This document shows, one piece after another, positions 22,293 to 42,889 of a stretch of DNA of 43,968 bases. Every line of letters starts with the position of its first letter. Positions within the stretch are counted from its first letter, which is position 1. The DNA comes from an uncultured Candidatus Saccharibacteria bacterium. Lineage in GTDB: Bacteria; Patescibacteriota; Minisyncoccia; Minisyncoccales; Staskawiczbacteraceae. Both the position numbers and the translations under genes were made by a program. Location: NCBI GenBank assembly GCA_964479955.1, contig CAYZNK010000002.1, forward strand, positions 222,955 through 266,922, in the 5' to 3' direction. The notes under the pieces are model-generated. The model worked only from the letters and a program-made list of their open reading frames with translations. It did no database searches and was not told the DNA's origin.

Positions 22293-22955
22293 TTAATTTC
22301 CTAAATTACTTTTTACTGACCTTATTGCGGCTCCCGATGACACCGAGAATATACCGCTGTCATCTTCAAAGTTTCGATTTAAAATCATTAAATTAATTTT
22401 TATAAATCTCACATCATTTATATTCACCGGATCTTCGAGGGGGTCTAAACTGCCATCATATTCCCCACTATAATAATAAAACAATGGAGTTTCCTCGTTT
22501 TGCAAATCAGACTGAACAACTTTAATTGATTCGGAAGATAAATCATATGTTAACGGATTACCGCTAGGAATAATCGTACCTTTATACAGATTATCGTCTG
22601 AGACATAATAACGTATTCTGTTTGAAATTAATGGATTCCCGCTCCCAAAATTAGAATAAAAGATTATTTCAAATTGGCCGGCTTTATTTAATGGATAAGA
22701 ACCATTATTCCCAATTGTGGCGCTCCTTATTTCATTTGCAAAAGCAAAAGAAATTATCCTTGCCTGGTCAATATTGTCCATTGATAAAAGACTTTTGTTA
22801 GAATCAGAAAAAATGTTGTTGGTCAGCGCAGAAACAAAAAACATAATTGCCAAAAATATTGATATTGTAATTATAATCTCTATCAAGGTAAACCCCTTTT
22901 TTCCACAAAATATTTTATTCTGCCAAATAAACTTGTAAAACATTGTATCCTTCAA
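22293..22955 (-). CDS. Prepilin-type minor pilin (PilW-like)
   Basis: KKG|FTLIEIII N-terminal methylation motif. Confidence 0.85.
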   Translation of the reverse strand: MKDTMFYKFIWQNKIFCGKKGFTLIEIIITISIFLAIMFFVSALTNNIFSDSNKSLLSMDNIDQARIISFAFANEIRSATIGNNGSYPLNKAGQFEIIFYSNFGSGNPLISNRIRYYVSDDNLYKGTIIPSGNPLTYDLSSESIKVVQSDLQNEETPLFYYYSGEYDGSLDPLEDPVNINDVRFIKINLMILNRNFEDDSGIFSVSSGAAIRSVKSNLGN

Positions 22956-24681
22956 TATTAATGTCGCTTATTATTTGAGATTGATATCCGCTTGCATTTA
23001 CCGTCAGCTCATATCCCGAATCTTCCTGAAGGTCAGAAAAAAATATCTGTCCGGGAGTAGAACATCCCGATATATAATTAATATTCACGCTGGTGATCAC
23101 CGGAGTTTTGGCAGAATCAAAGGTTGAAAGAAAAACTTTATATCTGACATAACGATTATTATCCATATCGGCGATGGTTGTTCCGGGAACAGTATAGTAT
23201 GTCTGACTGGTCCCATCAGGCCCCTTATAACTCCATGTTTCATTATCATTATTCGCCGCTATTTGAAACTTAACCTCGGTTAAAGGATCTTGAGAAGCCG
23301 GCTCCCAATTTAATGTTGTGTATAATGTGGAAGCTGTGCCAGTATCAAAGGAAGATGATGTTAATATTCCAGAAGACACATAAGATTCTCCGTTTTTAAA
23401 AAGCCGTAAACCTAAAGGAATTTCATTAACATCAACATTTCCATCGTCTTGATAGTATTTAGACAAATCAATGAAATCTGATTGCCCAGATCCTCCAGAC
23501 CAATCTTGCTGGCTCCATACGCTTCCGCTTGTCAATCCGGTATCGGAAAATTCACCAAGCTTTAATGTTACTTCTGCTGACTCAATGGGGTTTCCATTTG
23601 TCGCATCTTTAATTATGGCCAATAGGCTATTTTCTGTTTTTGGACCGATTATAAGGGTAAAATTCTGGGTTGTGTCGGGTAAAATGTTTGTCTCTTGAAT
23701 TGGTGAGGACCCGTATATCATATAATCAGAACTTATAAGGCCTGGCGTATAATTGTCCCATTCAATTTCTTCAAGAGAAATTTCTCCATTATGATCAGAA
23801 TAATACTCCTCATCAAATTTAAAAACATCCGGAGTGCCAATCAGTTTTGCTCCGCGAACTCCCAACCCTACATCAGAAATCGGGCTGCATGTCCTGTTCA
23901 AAATATAAAAAGTCAAATTACTCAGCTTGTCTATTGAAAAACTTATCTGGGTAACCTGGCCGTCAATAATTGTTGCATCCGGCTTTATAGGGTTTGGATT
24001 TTCTTCTGAAACCGGATAAGTTTTATCAATTGAATAGCCTTCTTTTGAAACTTCTATATTGTAACTTATCTCACTACTGGGCAATCCAACCTCAACCCAA
24101 TTTCCGCTCTCGTCACTAATTCTGGTCAAATCAATATTGGGCGTTATGCTTTCATTTATTATATGTATTGTTGCCCCGGAAACGGGCTGGCCAACAGCAT
24201 CAAAAACTTTTATATAAAGCGCTCCTCCGTCTTCCATCCCTTCAAGGCCTGTTGGAGAAATGTTTGTCAAAAAACTGTTTATCGTGTTTTTGATTATATT
24301 TTTTACATAAAGTTTGACCTGCTTATAATCGTTTGGGGAAGGGTCGCTCCCCAATATGGCAGTTCCATCAGCAGGGTCATCAACATAACTTATGGCATAA
24401 TAAATCTGGTAATTCTCTCCGTTCATTTGGGCGATGACAGGATTAGGAAGGTCGGGAAGATTGCCATGCGGATTTCCTTCGATTGTTCCTATATCGGCAT
24501 AAGCAATATTTCTGACAATTTCCAAATATTGATCAGCAAAAAAAGAAATTGTCATTCTTTCTCTGTAATATGCTATTCCATTTACGATAGAAATAAAAAC
24601 CCCAAAAATACTCACACTCAAAACGGCAAATATTGCCAGACAAACAACTATCTCAATTAAAGTTATGCCTTTTTGAAACAT
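22915..24681 (-). CDS. Large prepilin-type minor pilin (PilV-like) with Ig/carboxypeptidase-regulatory-like domains
   Basis: QKG|ITLIEIVV; P.SGATIHI...SDESGNW...GLP...Y.IEVSKEGY repeats-like modules; 588 aa. Confidence 0.82.
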   Translation of the reverse strand: MFQKGITLIEIVVCLAIFAVLSVSIFGVFISIVNGIAYYRERMTISFFADQYLEIVRNIAYADIGTIEGNPHGNLPDLPNPVIAQMNGENYQIYYAISYVDDPADGTAILGSDPSPNDYKQVKLYVKNIIKNTINSFLTNISPTGLEGMEDGGALYIKVFDAVGQPVSGATIHIINESITPNIDLTRISDESGNWVEVGLPSSEISYNIEVSKEGYSIDKTYPVSEENPNPIKPDATIIDGQVTQISFSIDKLSNLTFYILNRTCSPISDVGLGVRGAKLIGTPDVFKFDEEYYSDHNGEISLEEIEWDNYTPGLISSDYMIYGSSPIQETNILPDTTQNFTLIIGPKTENSLLAIIKDATNGNPIESAEVTLKLGEFSDTGLTSGSVWSQQDWSGGSGQSDFIDLSKYYQDDGNVDVNEIPLGLRLFKNGESYVSSGILTSSSFDTGTASTLYTTLNWEPASQDPLTEVKFQIAANNDNETWSYKGPDGTSQTYYTVPGTTIADMDNNRYVRYKVFLSTFDSAKTPVITSVNINYISGCSTPGQIFFSDLQEDSGYELTVNASGYQSQIISDINIEGYNVLQVYLAE

Positions 24682-24692
24682 ACCTAAATAAA

Positions 24693-25907
24693 TTATATAT
24701 TCCCCATGACTGAATACAGCGGGCCTATTATGGAAACTGCGAACACGCCGACAATCGTACCTAAAATAATTATCAAGATCGGTTCGATTAATGTGGATAT
24801 TGCATATGCATCATTCAAAACTTCTTCTTCATAAAAATCAGCCATTGTTTTTAAAATTACAGATGTTTTCCCTGTTTCTTCACCCATTTCAACCATTTCA
24901 ATTGTTCCATAGGAAAAAAATTTCTGATATGGCTTTAAACTGCTAAAAAGTTTTTCACCCTTTTCAACTCTTTTGGCAGATTCTTTAAGAGCTTGCTTAA
25001 AGTAAAAATTACTTACATTTCCCCCTGTTATTTCAAGAGATTTTATCAACGGAACCCCGGAAGCCATAAGAGAACTTAGCGACCTTGCAAAAGCAGCCGA
25101 GTTGCTTTTAACAATCAAAGAAGATATAAGCGGAATTTTAAGAGAAACCGTATCCATTAAAAACCTTCCTGTTTTTGTCCTTATTGAGAAAATAAATGCA
25201 AAAACTACAGCGACTAGCGCTATTATTAAAATATACCAATAAGTCATAAAAAAATCCCCCATTCCCAGTATTATTTTTGTTGTTATGGGCAGATCTGCGT
25301 TTAGACTCTGGAAAAGTTTTTTTATCTTTGGAAAAACAAATATTAAGATTAACAATCCAACTGCTATCATTGTCAAAATAAGAACAGCAGGATAAATCAG
25401 CGCTTTCTGAACGCTGGACTTCATTTCTTTTTCCCTTTTAAGTTGCAGCGACAAAACTTTTAAAACCTCCTCCAATGTTCCAGACTCTTCTCCCGACTGT
25501 ATCATATTAATATAAAGGTCTGAAAAAATATCAGGATATTTTTTCAAAGAATCAGAAAGATTTTTCCCTTCCCCTATTTCTCTAGATATATCCAGCAAGG
25601 CATATTTCATTTTTCTGTTTTTTGCCTGGGATGCCAGAATGGAAAATCCTCTAACCAAAGGAAGGCCTGTTGCGATTATTATCCAAAGATTTCTTGTCAT
25701 AACTATCTTTTCTGTTATAGAAACCTTTCCTGAAAAAACAGTCCACTTGAAAATTCTTTTTTTGTTCTCCGTTTTAATTTGAGCATCAATTAAAATCAGC
25801 CCTCTCTTTTTTAGATTCTGCGAAAGCTCCCTAAGGCTTTCTGATTCTAAAGTTCCTGATTCTGTTTTTCCGCTTAATGATTTGGCTTTATAAATAAAAA
25901 TCGACAT
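24693..25907 (-). CDS. pilC: Type IV pilus platform protein (GspF/PilC)
   Basis: F.YKA, GLPL...F, G..LSDSLKKYP..F, GEESGTL, YPA, GEETG...L. Confidence 0.93.
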   Translation of the reverse strand: MSIFIYKAKSLSGKTESGTLESESLRELSQNLKKRGLILIDAQIKTENKKRIFKWTVFSGKVSITEKIVMTRNLWIIIATGLPLVRGFSILASQAKNRKMKYALLDISREIGEGKNLSDSLKKYPDIFSDLYINMIQSGEESGTLEEVLKVLSLQLKREKEMKSSVQKALIYPAVLILTMIAVGLLILIFVFPKIKKLFQSLNADLPITTKIILGMGDFFMTYWYILIIALVAVVFAFIFSIRTKTGRFLMDTVSLKIPLISSLIVKSNSAAFARSLSSLMASGVPLIKSLEITGGNVSNFYFKQALKESAKRVEKGEKLFSSLKPYQKFFSYGTIEMVEMGEETGKTSVILKTMADFYEEEVLNDAYAISTLIEPILIIILGTIVGVFAVSIIGPLYSVMGNI

Positions 25908-25921
25908 AGTCTTAAATTTAA

Positions 25922-27673
25922 TTAATCCATAATGACCCTAAGCACCTCTTCTATCGAAGTTAATCCCTGCGCTGCTTTTACAAGCCCGTCTTCAACCATT
26001 GTCCTCATTCCGTTTTTCAGAGCCTGATTTTTAATTTCTATTGTGGGGGATTTTTTTATTATTAAATTTTTCATATCTTCATCAACTAATAAAATTTCAA
26101 AAATTCCGATTCTTCCTTTGTATCCGTCCGGAGAGTCAACAGAGCTTTTTGGCCTGTAAAATTCTATATCTTGGGGCTTGCCGGACTGCTTTAATATTTT
26201 TTCCTGCTTCAATATATTGACAACCCTGTCAATATCGCAATATTTTTTTAAATTTTCCAATTCCTCTGATTTCAGCTTGTATTTGGTCTTTTCTCCGTGA
26301 AACTTTCTGACCAGCCTCTGGGCTATAACTATGTTAAGGGTCGAAGAAAGTAAAAAAGGCTCTACCCCCATATCAACAAGCCTGGGTATGGCTCCCGAGG
26401 ACTCTGTTGTATGAAGGGTTGATAAAACTAAATGCCCTGTCAAAGCAGCATTAATAGCAAGCTCAGCAGTCTCCCTATCTCTTATTTCTCCAACCATTAT
26501 GATATTGGGGTCTTGTCTCAACAACGACCTTAATCCTGAGGCAAATGTCAGATTAATCTTCTCGTTAATCTGAGTTTGATTTACTCTCGGCATCCTGTAT
26601 TCAACAGGGTCTTCCACAGAAGATATATTTACTTTTGGAGTGTTTAAAATCCCCATCATTGCATAAAGAGTGGTTGTTTTACCAGAGCCAGTAGGACCTG
26701 TAATTAATATCATTCCATTGGTTTTTACCAGATTGTCCTTAATCTTCTGTAATTCTCCTCCGTTTAAACCTATGTCTTCCAATGTCAAGGCTTTCGTATT
26801 TTCCGCTAAAAGCCTCATAACGATTTTTTCTCCGTTCAAGACAGGTAGAACAGAAACTCTTATAGAATATTTGAAATCTTCAGTTTCAATTTTAAACCTG
26901 CCGTCTTGGGGTAGCCTGTGTTCGTCAAGCTTTAAATTAGAAAGCACTTTTATCCTTGCAACAATTCCCGGAGCCATATCTATTGGCAAAGAAATAGCAT
27001 CATTTAAAATTCCATCAATTCTGTACCGGACTATAACTTCCTGCTCTAATGGCTCTATATGGACATCAGAAGCTCTTTGTAAAATAGCATGCTTTAATAA
27101 TGTATCTACAACTTTTATAATTGAAACTTCTTCAGCGGCTTTTTTAAGGTCTCGTTTTTTTTCTGTATCTTCATCCTCTTTAATATGCTTTATGTCTCCT
27201 GTGCCCATGATGTCTCCAAACTCTGTCTTTATATTTTCCTGATATTGAGCCAAGGCGTTTTTTATTCCCTCTGAAGTTGTAAGTCTGGATAATATTTTTA
27301 AAGATGAATTTATTTTTTTAATGGATTCTATTGTCCTTAAGTCTTGAGGGTCCAACATCGCAACTTCAAGGTCATTATCCTTTTTTCTGAACGCGACAAT
27401 ATTATGAGACCTTGCAATTGATTCAGGAATTATCTTTAAAACATCAGGATTAATAATTTCGTCCGATAGATCAATAAAAGGAATACCCAAAAGATATGCC
27501 TCTATTTTTGTCAGCTCTTTTTCCGTAATAAAATTTTTTGAAACCAAAATTTCGCCTATATCCTTGCCGGTTTTGGCGCTTTCCTCGGCAACCTTATCAA
27601 ATTTTTTCTCTTCAATAAGCCCTGCCTCTAAAATAAACTTTTTTAATTTTCCCAATTCAACTTTCATAGGCAT
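25922..27673 (-). CDS. pilB: Type IV pilus assembly ATPase (GspE/PilB)
   Basis: ASDVHIEP, RLPQDGRF, GPTGSGKTTTLY, EDPVEY, LRQDPNIIMVGEIRD, TGHLVLSTLHT. Confidence 0.95.
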   Translation of the reverse strand: MPMKVELGKLKKFILEAGLIEEKKFDKVAEESAKTGKDIGEILVSKNFITEKELTKIEAYLLGIPFIDLSDEIINPDVLKIIPESIARSHNIVAFRKKDNDLEVAMLDPQDLRTIESIKKINSSLKILSRLTTSEGIKNALAQYQENIKTEFGDIMGTGDIKHIKEDEDTEKKRDLKKAAEEVSIIKVVDTLLKHAILQRASDVHIEPLEQEVIVRYRIDGILNDAISLPIDMAPGIVARIKVLSNLKLDEHRLPQDGRFKIETEDFKYSIRVSVLPVLNGEKIVMRLLAENTKALTLEDIGLNGGELQKIKDNLVKTNGMILITGPTGSGKTTTLYAMMGILNTPKVNISSVEDPVEYRMPRVNQTQINEKINLTFASGLRSLLRQDPNIIMVGEIRDRETAELAINAALTGHLVLSTLHTTESSGAIPRLVDMGVEPFLLSSTLNIVIAQRLVRKFHGEKTKYKLKSEELENLKKYCDIDRVVNILKQEKILKQSGKPQDIEFYRPKSSVDSPDGYKGRIGIFEILLVDEDMKNLIIKKSPTIEIKNQALKNGMRTMVEDGLVKAAQGLTSIEEVLRVIMD

Positions 27674-27747: not shown

Positions 27748-27816
27748 CCCAAAGCAAATAAAAACAACGGGGTGAATCCGCTGCTTCTATTCATCTAATT
27801 ATCTAAAAATGAAAAA

Positions 27817-28200
27817 TCAGGCTATGCATTCTTTAATTTTTTGCGCAATATCAGAAATTGGATGTTGGGCTTTTATAAAATAATCTTTCGCTCCTAAAGA
27901 TAGCGCCTTTTTTATATTCTCATTTTCTGCCAAGTTAGATAAAATAATAACGGGTATATTTTTTAGCAATTCATTCTTTTTAAAATCTTCCAAAACGTCT
28001 AGGCCTCCTTTTTTGGGCAAAACTAAATCCAAAAGAACTACATCAGGTTTTGAATCTATCGCAACAGACAAAGCATCTTCCCCGTCTTTTGCCGCAAAAA
28101 CGTTATATCCCGCATCTTCAAGCTCATTTTTAACAATACTAGATAATGTCTCCTCATCTTCCACCAATAAAACTTTTATATTATTCATTGTTGATTCCAT
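27817..28200 (-). CDS. Single-domain CheY-like response regulator
   Basis: VLLVEDE, VVLLDLVLPKKGG, PVIILSN, GAKDYFIK; no output domain; start at 28200 or 28188. Confidence 0.92.
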   Translation of the reverse strand: MESTMNNIKVLLVEDEETLSSIVKNELEDAGYNVFAAKDGEDALSVAIDSKPDVVLLDLVLPKKGGLDVLEDFKKNELLKNIPVIILSNLAENENIKKALSLGAKDYFIKAQHPISDIAQKIKECIA

Positions 28201-28266: not shown

Positions 28267-30282
28267 TCACTTGATTGGCAAAACAACAAAAAATGTTGTT
28301 CCCTCGTTTATTTTTGATTTAAACCAAATTTTTCCTCCCATGCTTTCTGTTGTCATTTTAGCCGCATAAAGACCCAGGCCATTGCCATCTGGCGTGTGAG
28401 GAAAAGCATTTTCAGCCCTGAATAATTTTTGGAAAATTCTGTTTTGCTGGTTTTCCGGGATACCTATTCCAGTATCAGATATTTCAAATAATAACTCTTT
28501 TTCATTTTTATTTATTTTAACTCCAACACTACCCTTTTCGGGCGTATATTTTACGGCATTAGATATAATATTCTGAAATATTAACCTTACCAAATCCGGG
28601 TCAACCGAAATTTCACCTATATTATCATCGCATTCAAATTTTAGTTTCTGCTTCCTTTTTTTAATATTAACCTCCTGCTCTATTATTATATCTTCAATAA
28701 GCTTCTTTATGTCTGTCGGGACTAAAGCGATTTTAAGTCTTCCAGCCTCAAGACGGGAAATATTAAGCATTATGTTTATCAATTTTATCATCCTTTCATT
28801 GCCACGATAAATCTGTTCAACATATTCTTTTTGTTTTGAAGATATTTTTCCGGCTTTTCCAGCAAGTAAAATTTCAGCATACCATTTTATAGCAGTAAGC
28901 GGAGTTCGCAATTGATGAGAAGCCAAAGAAACAAATTCTGATTTCGATTTATCAATCTGCCTTTCAACAGTCATATCGCGAAAAACATCAACAGCCCCTG
29001 TTATTTGCCCATTGATAATAACGGGGGTCACTATAATCGCCGCCGGAAATTTTGTGTTATCGCTCCTGACATAAGAATAAATTGTACCGTGCGACCCTTC
29101 AGTTGTTGATGTTATTATCTTTTTTCCGGAAGACAAGGCAATATTCAATGGGTTTTTCTCTTTTAAAACAGCTTCCCCTTTTTCTGTTTCTATTCTTAAA
29201 ATTTCGTCGTGGGGTTTACCCGTGGGGTTTTTCCCCTTGAGGCGCAACATCTCTTCGGCTGCCCTATTTATAAACATTATCTTTCCAAAATTATCTATGG
29301 CCACAACCCCGTCTCCAATTGAGCCTAATAGTGCTTCGTCTTCAATTCTTATAGCATCTATTTGATTTTTGGCTTTCTTCTCCGACTCATATGCCCTATT
29401 TATATCTTCTCTATATTTTATTTCTCTATTTACTCCTTTAATTAAGGAAATGCCAAAAAAGATGAAAACAATTAAAATCCCTGTCCTGATAAGCTGATAA
29501 TACAGGTTTTCAGTAAATATCATTACGTCCATCAGAAGAAGCAGACCTATCAATCCAACCAAAATTGTAGTAAGCACAACCTTAATCCCAAAAAGCTCCC
29601 TTTTAACAATTGCATAAAATGTAAACCCAAGCAAAATAATTGAAGAGTAGTCGCCTATCCAGTATAATCTGTATATTTTTAAAATTAGAGGGAAAGAAAT
29701 ATTAAAAATTCCGTTTGCAAGATAAAATATGGAAATTCCAACCAGTAAATATTCAATTTTTATTTTTTCCTCTTTTGGGCATTTTACATAAGCTTTTATC
29801 AAAAGATATAATGGAGAGACCATAAATAAAAATATTACAGCCAAAAACGGAATCATCCCTGAGCCGTATGTTATGGTAAGTTGAGATTCAACAAACCTTA
29901 TGCCCTTAATAATAAAGCTGCTGAACCCCGATAAAAATGTGGCTATAACTCCTAAAACAAGAATAATCCAACTCCAAACGCGATATTTTTTTTCTTGTTC
30001 CAAATAAGCCACTACAAAGAAATAAAGCAAGACAAAAAGCGGCGGAGTTGCAAACCATGCTATCCTAAGAAAGAGCATGCCCAAATCAGGGTTTGCTTTA
30101 CCAAAAACCCTTGCCATATAAGCAAAATTAACCCAAAGAGCCATAAAGAATATTTTGCCCAAAAATATTCTATTTATCTTGCCTTTTGGATTATTGCGCC
30201 ACATCATAACAGCCAACCACAATCCAAATATATCAATAAGGGCTATAAGGATTTGATTATAAAAAGGCAATATTTCAATCAT
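28267..30282 (-). CDS. Membrane sensor histidine kinase (multi-TM HisKA_7TM-like input, PAS, HisKA, HATPase)
   Basis: About 9 N-terminal TM helices, PAS (SIGDGVVAID...FIN.AAEEM), H-box SLASHQLRTPLT, N-box NAVKYT, G boxes DTGIGIP and GNGLGLY. Start set at ATG 30282, overlapping the upstream TGA. Confidence 0.93.
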   Translation of the reverse strand: MIEILPFYNQILIALIDIFGLWLAVMMWRNNPKGKINRIFLGKIFFMALWVNFAYMARVFGKANPDLGMLFLRIAWFATPPLFVLLYFFVVAYLEQEKKYRVWSWIILVLGVIATFLSGFSSFIIKGIRFVESQLTITYGSGMIPFLAVIFLFMVSPLYLLIKAYVKCPKEEKIKIEYLLVGISIFYLANGIFNISFPLILKIYRLYWIGDYSSIILLGFTFYAIVKRELFGIKVVLTTILVGLIGLLLLMDVMIFTENLYYQLIRTGILIVFIFFGISLIKGVNREIKYREDINRAYESEKKAKNQIDAIRIEDEALLGSIGDGVVAIDNFGKIMFINRAAEEMLRLKGKNPTGKPHDEILRIETEKGEAVLKEKNPLNIALSSGKKIITSTTEGSHGTIYSYVRSDNTKFPAAIIVTPVIINGQITGAVDVFRDMTVERQIDKSKSEFVSLASHQLRTPLTAIKWYAEILLAGKAGKISSKQKEYVEQIYRGNERMIKLINIMLNISRLEAGRLKIALVPTDIKKLIEDIIIEQEVNIKKRKQKLKFECDDNIGEISVDPDLVRLIFQNIISNAVKYTPEKGSVGVKINKNEKELLFEISDTGIGIPENQQNRIFQKLFRAENAFPHTPDGNGLGLYAAKMTTESMGGKIWFKSKINEGTTFFVVLPIK

Positions 30283-31145
30283 ATTATTATTTGCCCCAAA
30301 TAAATTAGTATTCCCCAAAAAATAAACTCTCCGGCCTCAATAATAAATCCGTAGTATTTATTTTTTTGGACAAGAAGAATGCAATAAAGATTTAAAAACA
30401 GCACGGGGATCAAAAATAGAACCAATACCGTAAAAACAGAATATAAATAAGCTAAAACAGGAACTAAAACAGACACAACAACATCAAATATTGTAATAAA
30501 TTTTAGCGCCCGATCCCTACCCATTAAAATTGGAAAAGTAATTAGTCCCTCTTTGCCGTCTGTTTCTATATCTTTTACATCAAGAAAAGCTTGCATTGAC
30601 ATTGTTTTTAAGTACACAAACACAAACAATACTACGGCCGCAGTTATAGTTGAAACGGATTCCGGATAATATGAATAGTAAATAAAAGGGAAAAATACCA
30701 TTAAGGAAAAAAATGCCGAAACATATAAGTTTTTAAAAAGAGGGATATATTTAGTCAATTTTTTAAATACGGTTGTATATAAAACTCCGAGTAAAAAAAT
30801 AATTCCTACAAATATTAATGGAAGAATTCCCCTGAAATAGACCAAGCTTAAAAACATTATTAATATTACCCAAAAAAGTATTGTCGGTATCTTTGATAAA
30901 TATGTTTTTAAATGCTCTGTTCTTTCCTTGTTTGTCAAATAATCAGAATTTATTTCTTTATATCTGTTATATAAATATATAGGATAAAAAGCTAAATACC
31001 CCACAAACAAAATATCCCAACTTAAACTGAGACCCAATAAGACAGAAGAAACAAAAACAATGCTTATGGCCCCAAAGCACTGCAAGTGCCCGCCCCATAT
31101 AAATTCTTTGCCCGCTAATTTTAAAATATTTTTTGTAGAAAACAC
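30279..31145 (-). CDS. UbiA-family membrane prenyltransferase
   Basis: About 8 TM; first motif YLYNRYKEINSD..N.ER, Y....K..P..KN, second motif DVKDIETD.KEG..T.PILMG; GTG start. Confidence 0.82.
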   Translation of the reverse strand: MFSTKNILKLAGKEFIWGGHLQCFGAISIVFVSSVLLGLSLSWDILFVGYLAFYPIYLYNRYKEINSDYLTNKERTEHLKTYLSKIPTILFWVILIMFLSLVYFRGILPLIFVGIIFLLGVLYTTVFKKLTKYIPLFKNLYVSAFFSLMVFFPFIYYSYYPESVSTITAAVVLFVFVYLKTMSMQAFLDVKDIETDGKEGLITFPILMGRDRALKFITIFDVVVSVLVPVLAYLYSVFTVLVLFLIPVLFLNLYCILLVQKNKYYGFIIEAGEFIFWGILIYLGQIII

Positions 31146-31158
31146 TTTTTTAAAAAAA

Positions 31159-31602
31159 TTATTCTCCCATTATTTGAATATTAATTTTTCTGTCCCTTTC
31201 CCTGTCCAGCTCAACAAACAGAATCACCTGCCATCTGCCAAGTTGGAGTTCTCCGTCCGATATATTAAGGGCAACTGACGTAGGCAAGTTTATTGCCTTG
31301 CAGTGACTGTGTCCGTTTCTGCATTCATTGTCGCACATATTTACAGTTCTTCGAGTAAAATCATCATGATTGTATTCTGTTGTTTTTGGAACAATTCTGT
31401 TTAAATAAATTTTTATGTCTTCTAAAAGCAGGGGCTCTTCTTCCTGAATCAAAACCGCCGCCGTTGTATGCATGCTTTGTATATTTACAATTCCGTTTTT
31501 TATTCCGGTATCCGCAATAAAAGATTTCACTTGGTCTGTTATATTAATTATATCAAGCTCTTTCTTTGTTTTTATTTCTATTGTCTTTGAATTTATTTTC
31601 AT
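31159..31602 (-). CDS. yjbQ: YjbQ/UPF0047 family protein
   Basis: I.NG.VNI...HTTAA, Y.HD, NGHSH, L.LG.WQ.I.FVELD..R.RK. Confidence 0.9.
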   Translation of the reverse strand: MKINSKTIEIKTKKELDIINITDQVKSFIADTGIKNGIVNIQSMHTTAAVLIQEEEPLLLEDIKIYLNRIVPKTTEYNHDDFTRRTVNMCDNECRNGHSHCKAINLPTSVALNISDGELQLGRWQVILFVELDRERDRKINIQIMGE

Positions 31603-31644: not shown

Positions 31645-33189
31645 TTATTTTTCTCTTTGGTTTACAATATCAACCAGATTGTTTAACATCAAGTTCCATT
31701 TATTTTCCGGCAAGTCTTTTAGGCTGTCTTTTGCTTTTCTAAAAAAAACTTCTGCTAAGTGTTTCGCTTTTACTTCGGCATCTGTTTTCTTTATAATTTC
31801 AATCGCTTTTTTAACATCTTTTTCGTTTATAATTTTTTTCTGGATTATTTTCAAAAAATCTTTTCTTTGGCTTTCCGAAAAGCTTTCAAATGCAATACAA
31901 ATAACTATGTTCCCCAGTTTTCTCTCTTTTACGTCTTTACCTATCTCTTTCTTAAATTTACTCTCATCTCCAAAAATATCAAGCAGGTCATCTTGGATCT
32001 GAAAAGCCATTCCCAAATTAAAACCGTATTTTCTGAGAGCTTCTAAGTGATTGTCTTTTCCGTCTGCGCAAATTCCTCCTATTTTACAGCACATCCCAAA
32101 TAAAAACGCTGTTTTCTTTTCAATCATCTTATAATAATTTTCCTTGCCAACTTTCAAATACCTGTTTTCAATGACATAAGGCTCATCTTCCCTGCCCCCC
32201 TGCTCAAAAAGGACATCATAAAGCTCTCCATCAAATATTGTTTTTAAAGTTTCAGAAAAAATTTGAGAAATTGCAACCGGATATTTTGAAAAATTAGCGG
32301 CTGAAAAAGCCGTTGCCGTATAGTCAGCTCCTGCGCATTCTGCAACTGAAACTCCAAACTTTTTCCAGACAGTTGGCTTCCCTCTTCTTAAAATTCCATG
32401 GTCTATTATGTCGTCTATAATCAAAGTGTAATTGTGCAAAATTTCAATTCCCGCGGCAGGATAAATTGCATCTTCAATTTTACCGCCCAGCAATCTGCAT
32501 GAAATAATCGCAAGCGCTGGCCTTAATTTTTTCCCGCCTGTTGCAACCTGGTATTTTATTATTTTATGAAATTTTTTGTCAGTATTATCTGTTAACAATT
32601 TATTTACCGCCGGCTCAACTTTTTTTGCCAGAGATTCCAAAAAAATATTTATTTTTTGCTTTTCCTGGGCCTCCCTTTTTTTAATTTTAATATATCTTTT
32701 AAATCCTATTTTCAGCCATGGAGTATATTCTTTTGGATGAATTTTGAATTCTGACAGCAATTTGTCCTCATCAATCCATTTGTAACCCGCAACTTCTTTT
32801 GAATCAGGATTTGGCTTGCCATCATATTGGCCAACTAAAACTGCGCAGACCTCATTTTCAAATCCTGCGTTTTTGTATTTTCTCTTATACACAAATTTAT
32901 CAACTTGCCTTAAAGGGACCTCAAACCCAAGTTCTTCTTTCATTCTTCTCTCGCCTGCTCTCTCATAATCTTCGCCCTCCCTGGGATGGCTACAGCATGA
33001 ATTTGCCCAATACAATGGCCAAAGAGGCTTGAGCTTGCTTCTTTGCTGAATTAAAAGCTGCCCTTTGTTGTTAAATATGTAAACTGAAAAAGCGCGGTGC
33101 AAAAGCCCCTCTTTATGAACACTTTCCTTATCCTTAAATCCCAGCACTTCGTCATTTTTATTAACCAGCAAAAGATTTTTGTCAGTCAT
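31645..33189 (-). CDS. Fusion: type 1 isopentenyl-diphosphate isomerase + trans-isoprenyl diphosphate synthase
   Basis: N-terminal HRAFS.YIF, QQRS..K..WP..W.NSCCSHP, ENEVC, TPW; C-terminal GGKKLRP, FARM YTLIIDDIIDH...RRG, KKTA, SARM FQIQDDLLD, GKDVKERK. Confidence 0.92.
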   Translation of the reverse strand: MTDKNLLLVNKNDEVLGFKDKESVHKEGLLHRAFSVYIFNNKGQLLIQQRSKLKPLWPLYWANSCCSHPREGEDYERAGERRMKEELGFEVPLRQVDKFVYKRKYKNAGFENEVCAVLVGQYDGKPNPDSKEVAGYKWIDEDKLLSEFKIHPKEYTPWLKIGFKRYIKIKKREAQEKQKINIFLESLAKKVEPAVNKLLTDNTDKKFHKIIKYQVATGGKKLRPALAIISCRLLGGKIEDAIYPAAGIEILHNYTLIIDDIIDHGILRRGKPTVWKKFGVSVAECAGADYTATAFSAANFSKYPVAISQIFSETLKTIFDGELYDVLFEQGGREDEPYVIENRYLKVGKENYYKMIEKKTAFLFGMCCKIGGICADGKDNHLEALRKYGFNLGMAFQIQDDLLDIFGDESKFKKEIGKDVKERKLGNIVICIAFESFSESQRKDFLKIIQKKIINEKDVKKAIEIIKKTDAEVKAKHLAEVFFRKAKDSLKDLPENKWNLMLNNLVDIVNQREK

Positions 33190-33283
33190 TTTTTTATGGT
33201 TATTATATTATAAACAAAAAATAATCAAATATCAAAATGATATCTGATTATTCAATCTCCATATCAATTTGTCGCACAATAGA

Positions 33284-33445
33284 TTAACGCTTTGTTTCTT
33301 TATGCGGGGTGTGTTTTTTGCAGGCTTTGCAAAATTTTTTCAGTTCTATTTTTTTCTCAGCAACTTTTTTGGTTTTGTTTGTAAAATAATTTGTTGTTTT
33401 GCAAACGCTGCAAGCCATTTTTGTTAGTGATTTTTTTGTTGCCAT
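33284..33445 (-). CDS. rpmG: 50S ribosomal protein L33 (zinc-binding type), not in the ORF track
   Basis: MATKKSLTKMACSVCKTTNYFTNKTKKVAEKKIELKKFCKACKKHTPHKETKR (53 aa). Confidence 0.93.
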   Translation of the reverse strand: MATKKSLTKMACSVCKTTNYFTNKTKKVAEKKIELKKFCKACKKHTPHKETKR

Positions 33446-37808: not shown

Positions 37809-39635
37809 ATGAAAGACTTTATCCTTAAATTAAAAAAAATATTCAAAGAAGACATTCTTGCATATCATCTGCTGTTTTTGGGATTTTTATTGAGGCTGTT
37901 TTATATTTTTAGCTTTACTGCCCCCAAAAATTATTTATGGTCGGATGCCGGGACATATGACGAACACGCCATGAGAATGGCAAATGGAATCCACATTGCC
38001 CTCTCAACTTATTGGCCGCCATTTTTTCATATTTTTTTAAGCTGGATTTATAGGCCATTGCTTTGGTTTGGATTAGAACAGCAAAGGATTACTATTGATA
38101 TTGTTTTATTTTCCCTGTTTTATATAATAGGATTTTGGTGCATATATCAAATTGCCAAAAAAATATTCCTTTCCAAAAAAATTGCGGCCGTTCTGCTGCT
38201 GGCACTGGTCTTATGGTATCCATTTATATATATGAATGGATTAATAATGAGCGAAAATCTGTTTTTCTTGCTGTTTTTTCTTGGGTTATATTTTCTGATA
38301 GCAAAACCGCAAACCAAAGCTAACGGCATTGTAATGGGACTACTGTGGGGAGTTGCTGTCATAACCAGGCCAATTTTTGCATTGGCAATCCCCTTCTTCC
38401 TTATTTGGGGGTACAAAAATAAAATTAACTTTAAATTTCTTTTGAATTTTACTGTCGTGACAGGGTTGATAATCGCCTCCATGATGATTTTTAACTTTTT
38501 TTATACCGGAGGAAGAGAAAAATCCGTTTCATCAAGCGGAGGATTCAATTTTGCAATGACATGGTGTGATACAAAATCTGTAAAATACACCAACGATGAC
38601 GGATATTGGTACTGGTTTGCATCAGCAGCAAACATTGATTATCCTGATGAAAAATCAATATCAACAACCGTTCCTTTTGAAAACCAGGGATATTATTACC
38701 AAATAGGGATGGATTGCATAAAAAAGAATCCTGTGATAATAATCAACAATCTGTTCTCAATCAAAAAATTATTTCACAGCCATTTATTTCCAACAACAAG
38801 CGATATGGTAGGATGGAAATTTTTCAGGCTTATTTTTAAAATCATTGTCATTGGGCTGTTTTTCTTAGGCGTCTTCTCGCTCATAGGCATAAAAAAGGGT
38901 TGGATAAAAACAAAAGATGAAACAAAAAAATATCTCTGGCTTTTTGCCCTGATAATTTTGGCGCTATTTATCACAATCTATCTGCAAAATGTAGGAGAAG
39001 AACGATATATAATACCATATTCCCCATTGCTGATGATTTTGGCGATTCCCGCAATAAGCAAAATATCTGAACGTATTTTTCCCATAAAATTTGCGAAATC
39101 AAAATTTATCGGCAACCGCAATGTTTGGATTTCTTATGCTGTTTTATTTTTTATTGCATTAATAACTTTTGCAGTTTACTCTGTCAGAATAAAGGCAAGC
39201 TACTTTATAAATCAAGATGGAACAAAAACAGAAATTTCTCTTCCTTTTTCTCAGGACCAAGAAACCAAAAACTTATCTTACGAGATAATAGCAGTTTCGA
39301 ACATAAATCAAACCGCAAAAATAAACATTGCTTTTGACGACATAATAAGAAAATTGTTGGTAAACGGTAAATCTATAGACTTGGAAAAAATTAAAAAAGA
39401 CAATAATCAAAAAGAGCTTTCGGACTGGAAACGGGGATATATTTTTGAGATTCCGCTGAAAGCAGGAGAAAATAAAATTCTGGTCAGCGGAGAAAATACC
39501 GGATGGGGATATTCATTGAAAATGAAACAAAAGCCTTTTTTCTGGATTTGGATGCTTCTTTTTATTTCAATTGCCATACCGATATCCCATATAACGGCGA
39601 TTTTAATTGAACTTACATTAAAAAATAAAAAATGA
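37809..39635 (+). CDS. GT-C fold membrane glycosyltransferase (ArnT/PMT-like) with extra C-terminal domain
   Basis: LWSDAGTYD loop, YWPPFF, SENLFF, TRP, EERY; many TM helices. Confidence 0.78.
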   Translation: MKDFILKLKKIFKEDILAYHLLFLGFLLRLFYIFSFTAPKNYLWSDAGTYDEHAMRMANGIHIALSTYWPPFFHIFLSWIYRPLLWFGLEQQRITIDIVLFSLFYIIGFWCIYQIAKKIFLSKKIAAVLLLALVLWYPFIYMNGLIMSENLFFLLFFLGLYFLIAKPQTKANGIVMGLLWGVAVITRPIFALAIPFFLIWGYKNKINFKFLLNFTVVTGLIIASMMIFNFFYTGGREKSVSSSGGFNFAMTWCDTKSVKYTNDDGYWYWFASAANIDYPDEKSISTTVPFENQGYYYQIGMDCIKKNPVIIINNLFSIKKLFHSHLFPTTSDMVGWKFFRLIFKIIVIGLFFLGVFSLIGIKKGWIKTKDETKKYLWLFALIILALFITIYLQNVGEERYIIPYSPLLMILAIPAISKISERIFPIKFAKSKFIGNRNVWISYAVLFFIALITFAVYSVRIKASYFINQDGTKTEISLPFSQDQETKNLSYEIIAVSNINQTAKINIAFDDIIRKLLVNGKSIDLEKIKKDNNQKELSDWKRGYIFEIPLKAGENKILVSGENTGWGYSLKMKQKPFFWIWMLLFISIAIPISHITAILIELTLKNKK

Positions 39636-40978
39636 TTTTTAAAAAAAATTTATCGAACTATCTTCCTATTGTTTTATTAACTCTTGGAATAGCGGCCAGG
39701 CTGTTTTTCGCGGGCAATTTTGGCATAGAATCGTATGCAAATTACAAAGACTATAGTTTTTTCCAATATACTCACGACACTTTGTACCACGTAGAATATA
39801 TCCAGTTTGTGGCAGACCATTTGTCTTTACCACCCGTTGAAAAAGGTCTTGAGTACCCCCAACAACCGCTTTATTATATTTTTTCTGGAGTCTTATATAA
39901 CATAATCAATGTGTCTTCTTTGGAAAAAATGGACGCGCCTGAAATTTTAAAAATTCTGGTATGGATATCCTGTTTATTTTCAATAGGAACTCTTGTCTTT
40001 GCTTATTTTCTTGCAAAAAAAATAACCGAATCTGTTTGGCTGCAATCTTTTATCACAGGACTTATGGCATTTACTCCGGCTTTTATATATCAAGCAGGAA
40101 TGCTAGGGAACGACCCTTTCTCCTCTTTTTTATCGGCAGGGGCTTTTTTTTATTTAATCTGCTATATAAAAAAAGAAAATCTTACAAATTTTATACTAGC
40201 AACCGTATTTTCTGTCCTTTCTTTTTTTTCAAAAGCCACAGCCGGAATCCTTCTAGTAATGATTTTGATTACTGTTGTATATAAATACTGGAAACAAAAT
40301 AAAAACGAATATTTGAAAATGGCCTTTTTAACATTGATAATTGGCATTGCATGTTTAGCTGTTTCATTATATAGAGCATATATCCCGTCAACAGGAGAAT
40401 TCAGATTTGTTGAAAGCTATACTTATATATATCAAAAAACAGACCCGAGTCGCTTAACTTATTTTTTGACTTTTAATATTCCTGAACTCTTAAGAGAGGG
40501 ACAATCTTTTGTTTTTGGAAACGAAAAAGTCGCCAGAACTCTACCAACTTTCTTATACGGTTCTTTTGTTTTTGGAGAATACAGCTTTGAAAACATAACA
40601 AAACCGTACCCTCTTGTAAAAAGCCTGATGCAGATAATTTTGTTATTGGGATTGCTATTCCCCCTGGGAATCATTTTTAACTTATTTTATTTTAAAAAAT
40701 GGGACATTATAGATTATATCTCCGGATTTGGAATTTTGATGAATCTGATTCTGCTTGTGTCTTTTTTCTCAAAATATTCTGCTGTATGCAATTCAGACTT
40801 TAGGTACTTTGGCCCGTTGTTTCTTGGCATTTTGGCCTTTTCTGGCAACGGGCTTTCAAAGCTTAATGAGAAAGTAAAAAATAAACACATTATTCCTGGA
40901 TTGGTCTTTACTTTAATATTCTTTGAAATCTTATGGGTTGCAATGAGAATCTACATTAGATTTTCTGCAAACATATAA
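39632..40978 (+). CDS. GT-C fold membrane glycosyltransferase (ArnT/PMT-like)
   Basis: HD..YH.EYI, EY.QQPLYY, GND, SK; ATGA overlap with the previous gene. Confidence 0.75.
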   Translation: MIFKKNLSNYLPIVLLTLGIAARLFFAGNFGIESYANYKDYSFFQYTHDTLYHVEYIQFVADHLSLPPVEKGLEYPQQPLYYIFSGVLYNIINVSSLEKMDAPEILKILVWISCLFSIGTLVFAYFLAKKITESVWLQSFITGLMAFTPAFIYQAGMLGNDPFSSFLSAGAFFYLICYIKKENLTNFILATVFSVLSFFSKATAGILLVMILITVVYKYWKQNKNEYLKMAFLTLIIGIACLAVSLYRAYIPSTGEFRFVESYTYIYQKTDPSRLTYFLTFNIPELLREGQSFVFGNEKVARTLPTFLYGSFVFGEYSFENITKPYPLVKSLMQIILLLGLLFPLGIIFNLFYFKKWDIIDYISGFGILMNLILLVSFFSKYSAVCNSDFRYFGPLFLGILAFSGNGLSKLNEKVKNKHIIPGLVFTLIFFEILWVAMRIYIRFSANI

Positions 40979-40993
40979 AACAACATATTAAAA

Positions 40994-41725
40994 ATGAAAA
41001 CAGTTTCCATATTGATCCCCGCTTACAATGAAGAAAAAAGGCTTCCAAAAACCCTTGAACTTTGGAAAGAGTTTATGTTGCACCCTCCTAAAGAGACAGG
41101 CAATAAAACAAATGACAGCCATTTTGAAATAAGTGAATTCATAATAATAGACGACGGTTCCCAAGATAAAACCGTTCAATCAGCAGAATCATTCAGGGAT
41201 TTGCCTATAAAAATAATACGCATAATGCCAAACAAAGGAAAAGGAAACGCTGTAAGACAAGGGATAAAAAACGCTAGAGGGGATTTTGTTTTTATCTATG
41301 ACGCTGACGCCGCCGTTTTACCCGAAGTTCTTAATACCCTTTTTGCAGAAAAAGAAACCTCAGATGTAATAATTGGCTCCAGGACATCTTTGGATTCCAA
41401 AACAAAAATGTCTTTTTTCAGGAGATTTGTGGGGTTTTGTTTTCATATTTTTTGCTATCCTTTACTGCCAAAAATAAAAGATGCTTCCTGTGGAGCAAAA
41501 CTGCTTAGAAAAACAGCTGCCCAAAAAATCTTTTCTAAACAAAAAATAGACAGATTTGCCTTTGATATTGAGATACTATGGCTGGCAAAAAAAATGAATT
41601 TTAGAGTAAAAGAAATTGGCATAACATGGCAGGAAATTCCGGGCTCAAAAGTAAATGTGTTAAGAGACGCCCCTGAAATGTTTTTTTCAGTATTGGGCTT
41701 GTATATAAGGGCAATTTTTGGTTAA
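40994..41725 (+). CDS. GT2 polyprenol-phosphate glycosyltransferase (Dpm1/Alg5-like)
   Basis: SILIPAYNEEKRL, IIDDGS.D.T, N.GKG.AVR.G, YDAD, D..CG.KL, F.FD.EIL.LA. Confidence 0.88.
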   Translation: MKTVSILIPAYNEEKRLPKTLELWKEFMLHPPKETGNKTNDSHFEISEFIIIDDGSQDKTVQSAESFRDLPIKIIRIMPNKGKGNAVRQGIKNARGDFVFIYDADAAVLPEVLNTLFAEKETSDVIIGSRTSLDSKTKMSFFRRFVGFCFHIFCYPLLPKIKDASCGAKLLRKTAAQKIFSKQKIDRFAFDIEILWLAKKMNFRVKEIGITWQEIPGSKVNVLRDAPEMFFSVLGLYIRAIFG

Positions 41726-41748
41726 ATTATATAAATCTTTAATTCATT

Positions 41749-41820
41749 AAACCAAAACTCAAAAATCAAATACCAAAACCATATATTTTTGGTTTTTGGT
41801 CTTTGGATTTTGGTATTTTA
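41749..41820. repeat. Heptamer-repeat hairpin
   Basis: AACCAAA ACTCAAA AATCAAA TACCAAA ... TTTTGGT TTTTGGT CTTTGGA TTTTGGT. Confidence 0.7.
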
Positions 41821-41824
41821 ATAA

Positions 41825-42889
41825 ATGAATAAAAAAATAAAGCTTATTATTTTAAACTTAATAGTCTACGGCGTACCAATTTTTATTTTATCTTTTATTC
41901 CCTACACAAAAAATCTATGGGGAGACTTTGAATCTTCGTTTATTTTTAACTTTTTGTTTTACGGAAAAAAAATATTTCTGCCAATGGGAATAATAACAGA
42001 CTTTCTGCTGTTTTATTTCCTGTACATAATACTTTTCAAAAAAGATATTGATATTGGAAAAGAAAGAGCTTATTTTATATTGTCTGCTACAAAAAAAATA
42101 CTGGCTTGGATTTTCAAAGATAAGCTGAATAAAGATTTGTCATTATCAAAGGAAGAAAAAACTTCTCTTTTGTTTTACTTGGTAAAAATATACTTTACTC
42201 CGGTAATGTTGAATTTTTTAATCAATAATCTGCATTCTTTAATAAATCTTTTTCCGATTTTTAAAAGCTACCTTTTAACAAAACCGTTTTTATTTTCTGA
42301 AAACAAAATAACGGGCATTGTTTTTCAGACAATCCTGTACGCAATATTGGTACTGGACACACTTATATTTTCCTTTGGATATTTATTTGAGTCTTCCGGC
42401 CTCAAAAATAAAGTGAGGTCAGTTGAACCTACAATGCTGGGATGGATGGTTGCAATTATATGCTATCCCCCCATAAATAGTTTATCGGGCAATATTTTAG
42501 GATGGTATACTTCTGACTTTGGAGAATTTGGAAATCCAAATCTGAATATAACGATGGGGGTTGTTTCTATTTTATTTTTTATGATTTATGTATGGGCATC
42601 TATTGCTTTGGGAACTAAAGCCTCAAATCTTACCAACAGGGGAATTGTTTCAAAGGGGCCATATAAATTTATAAGACATCCTGCATACGCGGCAAAAAAT
42701 CTTAGCTGGTGGATTATGGGAATTCCTTTTATAGTGGAATTTGGTTTTATTGCTGTATTCAGTTTGTCTTTATGGACCTTTATATATTATTTGAGGGCGC
42801 TAACTGAAGAAAGGCACTTATTACAAGATCCGGACTATATTGAATACTGCAGAAAAGTAAAATATATGTTCTTGCCGGGAATATTATAA
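41825..42889 (+). CDS. ICMT/PEMT-like integral membrane methyltransferase
   Basis: C-terminal GIV..GPY..IRHPAY...RALTEE.HL..DP.Y..Y...VKY.FLPG. Confidence 0.8.
   Translation: MNKKIKLIILNLIVYGVPIFILSFIPYTKNLWGDFESSFIFNFLFYGKKIFLPMGIITDFLLFYFLYIILFKKDIDIGKERAYFILSATKKILAWIFKDKLNKDLSLSKEEKTSLLFYLVKIYFTPVMLNFLINNLHSLINLFPIFKSYLLTKPFLFSENKITGIVFQTILYAILVLDTLIFSFGYLFESSGLKNKVRSVEPTMLGWMVAIICYPPINSLSGNILGWYTSDFGEFGNPNLNITMGVVSILFFMIYVWASIALGTKASNLTNRGIVSKGPYKFIRHPAYAAKNLSWWIMGIPFIVEFGFIAVFSLSLWTFIYYLRALTEERHLLQDPDYIEYCRKVKYMFLPGIL

Follow-up and report, generated by a model that had tools for sequence, protein, structure and literature searches.

What does a UbiA-superfamily protein do when its gene is joined to that of a sensor kinase in a 703-kb bacterial genome? 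The question arises from a 43,968-nucleotide stretch of DNA from an uncultured Candidatus Saccharibacteria bacterium (contig CAYZNK010000002.1 of assembly GCA_964479955.1, positions 222,955 to 266,922), hereafter the window, in which a minus-strand gene with a GTG start (30279..31145) encodes a 288-aa UbiA-fold enzyme of an uncharacterised clade. Patescibacteria, or the candidate phyla radiation (CPR), have a minimal metabolism and are thought to be host-attached, and their sensing is almost unexplored. The reading we favour, and to which we give roughly an even chance, is that the UbiA-like enzyme and the kinase encoded after it, which carries a HisKA_7TM sensor domain, form a terpenoid signal synthase/receptor pair. 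As far as gene comparison can tell, both kinds of component are known (a UbiA-superfamily enzyme; a synthase/receptor-kinase pair), and in the literature searched we found no published description of this UbiA-like clade or of its pairing with a kinase.

The protein passes the superfamily threshold of the Pfam UbiA model (PF01040; 53.9 bits against a cut-off of 34.2, over residues 43-256). Its AlphaFold2 (AF2) model, of high predicted quality (pLDDT 97.4, pTM 0.93), consists of an N-terminal helix and nine long predicted transmembrane (TM) helices, and a Foldseek comparison recovered the nine-TM UbiA fold (E 2.4e-6). This fold is shared with the archaeal digeranylgeranylglyceryl phosphate (DGGGP) synthase of Methanocaldococcus jannaschii (MjDGGGPS, 6m31/7bpu), ApUbiA and AfUbiA, at Z scores of 17-20. 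In detail, VIA-align gave Z scores of 20.2 for ApUbiA (4od4; 260 residues aligned, rmsd 3.5), 18.6 for AfUbiA (4tq3), 17.4 for MjDGGGPS (6m31), 16.7 for UBIAD1 and 15.9 for a membrane phosphoribosyltransferase. The highest identity among these structural matches was to MjDGGGPS (20%), which by sequence, too, ranked first in the PDB (E 3.5e-9, 18-20% identity).

The first Asp-rich motif had been read in the original prediction as NRYKEINSD instead of NDxxDxxxD, and the second, DVKDIETD, as canonical; both read as claimed. The variant motif (N60, R61, E64 and D68, within residues 60-68) lies at 30942..30968 (-) and is supported by translation, family conservation and alignment to MjDGGGPS; the second motif (D189, D192 and D196, within residues 189-196) lies at 30558..30581 (-) and corresponds to D180/D183/D187 of MjDGGGPS. 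A profile of 110 family members aligned with MjDGGGPS (6m31) places N60/R61/E64/D68 opposite N62/D63/D66/D70, and therefore the register proposed earlier was correct. The canonical NDxxDxxxD is absent: the N..E..D triad is kept with a D-to-E change, and a conserved Arg stands in place of the second Asp. Non-canonical first motifs also occur in active ApUbiA, AfUbiA and UbiA-type terpene synthases (PMC9835599), so the variant is compatible with membership of the superfamily.

Mutations of N62, D66, D70, Y125, K130, D180, D183 and D187 impair MjDGGGPS (PMC9385802), and these residues align with N60, E64, D68, Y123, K128, D189, D192 and D196 of the UbiA-like protein. The counterparts are conserved or invariant across 147 full-length family representatives averaging less than 40% identity, and the only change among them in the present protein is the replacement of D66 by E64; D63, which is Arg here, lies outside the set of residues critical for activity. 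Because all critical residues are kept except for this conservative change, the protein is probably an active enzyme that binds Mg2+ and diphosphate. Three catalytic motifs are common to it and the archaeal DGGGPS/UbiA homologues: N..D/E..D, Y-x4-K and D-x2-D-x3-D.

Across the same 147 representatives, the first motif follows the pattern [N/D]-R-x-x-[E/D/G]-x-x-x-D. Position 60 is D in 78 and N in 68, position 61 is R in 129 and H in 12, position 64 is E in 68, D in 43 and G in 28, and position 68 is D in 144. Near-complete or complete invariance was found at N72, R75, Y123, K128, K138, D189, D192 and D196 (D192, D196 and K128 being invariant, and D189 and Y123 each kept in 146), so that the second Asp-rich motif and the Y...K motif of the superfamily are both present. 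The family also has a conserved N-terminal signature of its own, E-x4-G-H (E14, G19, H20). A catalytically dead pseudo-enzyme, whose sole role would be to partner the kinase structurally in the membrane, might be suspected from the departure of the first motif from NDxxDxxxD, and from the Gly at position 64 in 28 of the 147, which makes one metal ligand dispensable in the family. We regard this explanation as very improbable: D68, R75, Y123, K128, K138, D189, D192 and D196 are near-invariant or invariant over sequences this diverse, and active UbiA-type terpene synthases also have Gly or Ala at that position (PMC9835599). The suggestion that the protein acts as a membrane co-sensor of the kinase is, in a purely non-catalytic form, improbable in view of the conserved catalytic residues.

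The prediction of a distinct subfamily gained support. Searched with phmmer, 1.84 billion cluster representatives yielded 672 matches at E <= 1e-3, of which 370 reached E <= 1e-10; for a superfamily as extensive as UbiA, this makes the family a compact group that stands well apart. In six further UbiA proteins of this phylum the motif is still NDxxDxxxD, and therefore base composition or lineage does not account for the variant motif, which, judged by its conservation, is specific to the family and not a product of chance. The NCBIfam equivalog models were missed by a wide margin: PRK12884 scored 45 (cut-off 269), the DGGGPS models NF009521 and NF009522 scored 35.3 (cut-off 296) and 21.5 (cut-off 353), MenA scored 18.1 (cut-off 102) and ubiA_other scored 19 (cut-off 181).

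An ordinary prenyltransferase of quinone, heme O, chlorophyll or decaprenyl-phosphoribose (DPPR) type, adjoining the kinase by chance, would explain the generic Pfam UbiA membership. This reading is largely refuted, and we give it next to no weight: the MenA, ubiA_other and DGGGPS models reach 18-45 bits against cut-offs of 102-353, the gene is the sole UbiA in the genome (702,865 bp in 4 contigs, 99.15% complete), no acceptor pathway was detected, and adjacency to the kinase is conserved over 35 loci. The absence of an acceptor pathway is stated without a gene-by-gene search for its members. The PcrB/geranylgeranylglyceryl phosphate (GGGP) synthase family (PF01884) also had no match in the 99.15% complete genome, which leaves a DGGGPS-type enzyme without its acceptor supply. 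The earlier remark that partner genes were missing from the window therefore holds for the acceptor side, with a single UbiA and no PcrB/GGGP synthase; it fails for the donor side, because the second gene upstream, in the same orientation, is a prenyl-donor fusion.

That fusion opens a run of five co-oriented minus-strand genes: an isomerase/prenyl synthase fusion, YjbQ, the UbiA-like gene, the 7TM-PAS kinase and a receiver. In the fusion (31645..33189, (-); Pfam NUDIX and polyprenyl_synt), a type 1 isopentenyl diphosphate (IPP) isomerase of the Nudix class is joined to a short-chain (C15/C20) trans-prenyl diphosphate synthase; its NCBIfam IPP isomerase score is above the cut-off, and IdsA/geranylgeranyl diphosphate (GGPP) synthase is the best among the synthase models. 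The YjbQ/UPF0047 protein (31159..31602, (-); Pfam PF01894 and TIGR00149) has its stop 13 nt ahead of the UbiA start, and in five related loci (L035, L050, L060, L063, L074) YjbQ likewise separates the prenyl synthase gene from the slot held by UbiA or the terpene synthase. The kinase gene (28267..30282, (-)) encodes HisKA_7TM, PAS, HisKA and HATPase_c domains by Pfam and likely starts with the ATG at 30282. The UbiA-like gene ends in ATA ATA TGA, and the ATG of the resulting ATGA opens the kinase frame (MIEILPF...), giving a 4-nt overlap. The ORF finder placed the start at a TTG (30318); given the 4-nt overlap in the relatives, this probably extends the frame too far. The translational coupling that had been proposed is thus borne out by the ATGA overlap with a kinase start at 30282. 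The last gene (27817..28200, (-)) encodes a single-domain response regulator of 127 aa, a receiver (Pfam Response_reg, 81.8 bits) that lacks an output domain.

The kinase is the sole 7TM histidine kinase of its type in the genome and is without an extracellular domain. The AF2 model of its 7TM part has a pLDDT of 91, and a Foldseek search of this domain against the PDB gave only weak, generic matches of the G-protein-coupled receptor (GPCR) kind (E ~1e-3, TM 0.45-0.54), with no informative relative. The HisKA_7TM domain is listed simply as a sensor, and no ligand is given for it (PMC5847659).

Conservation of the pairing was assessed in a scan of species-representative genomes, which yielded 46 related loci for ORF calling and BLAST. 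Most are from Patescibacteria (Parcubacteria/Paceibacteria, Nealsonbacteria, Minisyncoccales and others), with a few archaea and one Calditrichaeota. The UbiA-like gene was found in 45 loci and the 7TM kinase in 38; in 35 no more than 30 nt separate the UbiA stop from the kinase start, and most of these pairs overlap by 4 nt. A prenyl synthase lies nearby in 22 loci and a receiver-only regulator of ~125 aa in 17, and the kinase stays adjacent even where UbiA identity falls to 27%. Of 401 genomes sampled evenly from the phylum, 8 carried the UbiA-like family and the kinase was adjacent in all 8, while the 7TM kinase family is wider (51 of 401); therefore the enzyme depends on the kinase, and not the reverse. 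The family occurs in ~2% of the sampled genomes and in two of the six genomes of this order, including the present one, a patchy distribution that fits an accessory function. Adjacency is thus conserved across divergent lineages, as for a signal synthase and its receptor kinase (35 of 45 loci, 8 of 8 genomes, one kinase clade), and the coupling is far more general than the single window in which a co-sensor had been proposed.

In one locus (L056:448-3441), the genes for a free-standing 7TM protein of 355 aa that lacks a kinase core, the UbiA-like protein and the 7TM kinase, in this order, overlap or abut. In the Calditrichaeota metagenome-assembled genome (L042:960-8662), a UbiA-like homologue lies between an FG-GAP histidine kinase/NtrC-type regulator and a second sigma-54 activator, a signalling context outside CPR and without a 7TM kinase; a 7TM sensor on the sigma-54 activator that follows was considered and rejected, as hhalign found no similarity. 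Another type of UbiA, of ~500-540 aa, is common in the phylum (L010:640-2238, L013, L016, L018 and others) and absent from this genome; it has NDxxDxxxD in its C-terminal half and ~250 N-terminal residues without a Pfam match.

The kinases that accompany UbiA belong together. In a tree of the 7TM domains of 86 homologues, one clade (SH-aLRT 100) held 35 UbiA-adjacent, 4 UbiA-near and 2 terpene-synthase-adjacent domains; the tree comes from a quick IQ-TREE run (LG+G4), so its deeper branches are not to be trusted. The last two kinases are preceded by a soluble protein of 324-351 aa in place of UbiA (G226 and G317). In G226, a genome of the same order, the sequence prenyl synthase, YjbQ, 351-aa protein and 7TM kinase is in exact synteny with the window. 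The two soluble proteins are 35% identical to each other and carry DDxAD followed ~137 residues later by N-W-I-S-T-W-E-R-E (N-x3-T-x3-E), the metal-binding pattern of class I terpene synthases. In the ESM Atlas, the G317 protein (L080) falls with terpene synthase clusters (feature score 0.97), and its structural comparison with a plant myrcene synthase cluster gives TM values of 0.92 and 0.73; Pfam gives at most a sub-threshold match.

This terpene-synthase-like family is present in 5 of the 401 genomes, and all five copies are directly followed by a histidine kinase, two with a 7TM sensor and three with GAF-GAF sensors. The latter three loci are L120:1-2510, L121:5104-8826 and L122:4355-7530, with an overlap or gap of at most 4 nt in two of them. 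A 7TM identity for the N-termini of the kinases in G100, G019 and G116 was rejected: these regions are unrelated to 7TM and are GAF domains.

Two unrelated proteins, both of which would ionise prenyl diphosphates, occupy one slot before one kinase clade, and the simplest common denominator would be a small hydrophobic product that serves as ligand of the kinase. In the signal-pair reading, the isomerase/prenyl-synthase fusion upstream would supply farnesyl diphosphate (FPP) or GGPP, and the UbiA-like enzyme would ionise the diphosphate with Mg2+ held at N60/E64/D68 and D189/D192/D196. The product would be a membrane-resident terpenoid, either a prenylated acceptor or an acceptor-free product such as UbiA-type terpene synthases make. 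The seven-helix domain of the kinase would detect this terpenoid lipid, or the enzyme making it, and the kinase would then phosphorylate the receiver-only regulator. The enzymatic activity, the donor, the product and the role of that product as kinase ligand are what we infer from the evidence above.

The acceptor-free alternative had also been raised in the original prediction, as a cyclase. The characterised UbiA-type terpene synthases (Fma-TC, EriG, Tps1A/Tps2A) carry the motifs NxxxG/AxxxD and QDxxDxxxD (PMC9835599), and compared by these published motifs they resemble the present protein in the UbiA fold, in the loss of the second Asp of NDxxD and in a DxxDxxxD motif II. In the family, motif II reads L-DxxDxxxD with a conserved Gln four residues earlier. 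At the middle position of motif I, where the terpene synthases have Gly or Ala, the family has Glu, Asp or Gly, and the present protein has Glu. The 28 representatives with Gly, together with the class I terpene-synthase-like gene that takes the UbiA slot in two genomes, speak indirectly for a cyclase. Against it, a geranylgeranyl reductase gene lies ~140 nt or less upstream in five of the eight loci that carry one, and such a neighbour suggests an uncyclised chain. The known UbiA-type terpene synthases also differ in being fungal secondary-metabolite enzymes with no kinase link.

A mirror-tree comparison bears on how enzyme and sensor may be connected. For 32 UbiA/kinase pairs, pairwise UbiA and 7TM distances correlated at r = 0.82 (permutation maximum 0.35 in 1000 permutations), compared with r = 0.46 for UbiA and the kinase catalytic core and r = 0.51 between the 7TM domain and its own kinase core; uneven rates, or saturation in the core, could account for this difference without co-adaptation. 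Correlation above that between the kinase's own halves (0.82 against 0.51) is what would be expected if the UbiA-like enzyme were complexed with the 7TM domain and the kinase read the occupancy or turnover of the enzyme, not a released product. Such a flux or substrate co-sensor would report the supply of prenyl diphosphates or of a host-derived acceptor, like BceAB-BceS or DctA-DcuS, in which the true sensor is the transporter or enzyme. The ATGA coupling suggests equal stoichiometry and agrees with it, as does the lack of HMG-CoA reductase, GHMP-family kinase and IspH genes at 99% completeness, given which prenyl precursors may be imported and worth monitoring. We nevertheless judge a co-sensor of this kind unlikely, though it is the strongest of the rivals. 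A soluble terpene-synthase-like protein can fill the slot, in three of five cases with a soluble GAF kinase, and a shared small ligand fits this better than a protein interface; moreover, no natural UbiA-kinase fusion was found among longer proteins, which is weak evidence.

The isoprenoid genes of the genome comprise the IPP isomerase and the one trans-prenyl synthase, both in the operon fusion, and one UppS. No HMG-CoA reductase, GHMP-family kinase or IspH was found in the 99.15% complete genome, and no geranylgeranyl reductase scored above cut-off in it; to judge from these gene searches, the genome is without a recognisable mevalonate or methylerythritol phosphate (MEP) route to IPP.

Could the enzyme instead belong to membrane-lipid synthesis? 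It might transfer a geranylgeranyl or phytanyl chain onto a glycerol-type or lysolipid acceptor, in a step like that of DGGGPS, with the polytopic kinase sensing the state of the bilayer, as DesK does beside the desaturase gene des. The closest solved and NCBIfam relatives are DGGGP synthases, the kinase lacks an extracellular domain, a gene of the geranylgeranyl-reductase family (TIGR02032 above cut-off) lies near UbiA in 8 loci, and dedicated prenyl synthases are found in ~10 of the related loci. Yet the genome has no GGGP synthase (PcrB) partner, and the DGGGPS equivalog scores, at about one tenth of the cut-offs, are far too low (35 versus 296; 21.5 versus 353). Compared with the archaeal enzymes, the family has D63 replaced by a conserved Arg and D66 by Glu, Asp or Gly, bears its own E-x4-G-H signature, and is tied to a histidine kinase, not to lipid genes. 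Its presence in ~2% of sampled genomes (two of six in the order) does not suit a core lipid step, the receiver has no DNA-binding output, unlike DesR, and the exchange for a soluble terpene-synthase-like protein fits poorly with lipid assembly. Homeostatic control of a membrane-lipid enzyme therefore seems to us improbable, somewhat more so than a flux co-sensor.

Precedents for a synthase/receptor pair are found elsewhere in bacteria. In the CqsA/CqsS and LuxM/LuxN systems of Vibrio, the gene for a synthase of a hydrophobic small molecule lies beside that of a kinase whose sensor is a membrane-helix bundle with no periplasmic domain. The UbiA-like enzyme and the 7TM kinase have the same arrangement of enzyme gene and polytopic-sensor kinase gene, and the pair would work as such an autoinducer synthase and receptor kinase do, with a terpenoid as ligand. 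The differences lie in the enzyme class (UbiA), the presumed ligand (a terpenoid), the sensor (HisKA_7TM) and the receiver without an output domain; the Vibrio systems also differ in that the present pair is known from its genes, which do not imply export of the product. The ComQXPA system of Bacillus comprises the isoprenyl transferase ComQ, the peptide ComX, the multi-TM kinase ComP and the regulator ComA, and likewise unites an isoprenoid-handling enzyme, a multi-TM kinase and a response regulator in one operon. ComQ, however, is a soluble prenyl-synthase homologue and not a UbiA protein, and the present operon has no ComX-like mini-gene. A ComX-like peptide substrate was rejected, since the operon leaves no room for it, the sole small ORF nearby is L33-like and no small ORF is conserved 5' of UbiA in the related loci.

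Paralogous 7TM kinases of the phylum extend the likeness to the Vibrio systems, as some sit behind LuxI/FeeM-like and BioF/CqsA-family genes. A same-strand gene lies within 600 nt upstream of the paralogous kinase in 40 of 45 informative loci: a FeeM/LuxI-like acyltransferase in 7, an S-adenosylmethionine (SAM) methyltransferase in 5, an Acg/Rv1355c-like nitroreductase-fold protein in 5, a PaaK/GH3-like adenylating enzyme in 4, ThiF in 4, an alpha/beta hydrolase in 2 and a BioF/Kbl/CqsA-family alpha-oxoamine synthase in 2. We count small-molecule enzymes in the same slot as support for a signal pair; the survey covered 7TM kinases alone, with no control set of random, unrelated kinases, and these neighbours are therefore suggestive only.

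Two of these groups deserve description in their own right. The acyltransferase loci (L077:3320-3931, L084, L086, L089, L091, L104 and L118) span at least five families of the phylum, the L077 protein scores above the TIGR03694 cut-off, and it is possible that these acyltransferases and their 7TM kinase neighbours are N-acyl signal synthase/receptor pairs. The BioF/Kbl/CqsA-family genes directly 5' of a 7TM kinase (L108:2740-3969 and L119:2598-3908) recall CqsA/CqsS; with a score just under the bioF cut-off (422 versus 426), such a gene may encode an ordinary BioF.

Several observations weigh against a terpenoid signal pair. The archaeal loci with the UbiA-like family have no kinase. The receiver has no output domain, and therefore no regulatory target can be named. 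The geranylgeranyl reductase beside UbiA in eight loci, close upstream in five, suggests a linear saturated chain of membrane-lipid type and not a diffusible signal. The prenyl synthase of the operon is the only one in the genome and so also serves undecaprenyl phosphate synthesis, which makes its proximity to UbiA non-specific. To these are added the rate and saturation effects that could lie behind the mirror-tree difference, and the tendency of gene neighbourhood, in genomes so small and densely packed, to exaggerate functional links for the paralogous kinases that have mixed neighbours.

Other features of the window complete the picture of the locus. A promoter-like site, TTGATA-17-TATAAT, lies 5' of the first operon gene (33207..33235, (-)), and a terminator-like hairpin with a 16-pair stem and a T run lies directly 3' of the receiver gene (27755..27793, (-)); both are consensus matches alone, the former at 11 of 12 positions. 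Between tRNA-Thr and the operon, a 53-aa ORF with two CxxC pairs (33284-33445, (-)) resembles ribosomal protein L33 by inspection. A type IV pilus set follows 3' of the receiver (22293-27673, (-)), with a PilB-like ATPase, a PilC-like platform protein and two proteins with prepilin-type N-methylation motifs, one of which carries a CarboxypepD_reg domain; this neighbourhood is not kept in the related loci. Some 9 kb away from the operon, the plus strand encodes in series (39632-42889) a glycosyltransferase of the PMT family (dolichyl-phosphate-mannose type), another of GT2 type and a membrane methyltransferase resembling ICMT/PEMT, further functions that are polyprenyl-phosphate-dependent or isoprenoid-related.

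Taken together, the wider proposal is that CPR bacteria use self-made terpenoids as signals, with the ligand made by a UbiA-type or a soluble class I synthase and read by a GPCR-like seven-helix or a GAF kinase of the same transcript; this we put forward tentatively, at somewhat less than an even chance. It would be, with similar reserve, a terpenoid autocrine or quorum-type system without a described bacterial counterpart, and would belong to a larger group of synthase/7TM-kinase pairs in the phylum. The isoprenoid pool of this organism is of interest in itself, for there is no visible route to IPP, yet undecaprenyl phosphate must be built from that pool. If the proposal is true, a function would be assigned to an orphan UbiA clade of at least 370 clusters at 50% identity, the HisKA_7TM sensor domain would gain its first candidate ligand class, and a tractable two-protein system would be at hand for asking whether bacteria signal with terpenoids. 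If the unit is instead a lipid-homeostasis module, it would still be a new DesK-like circuit acting on isoprenoid lipids.

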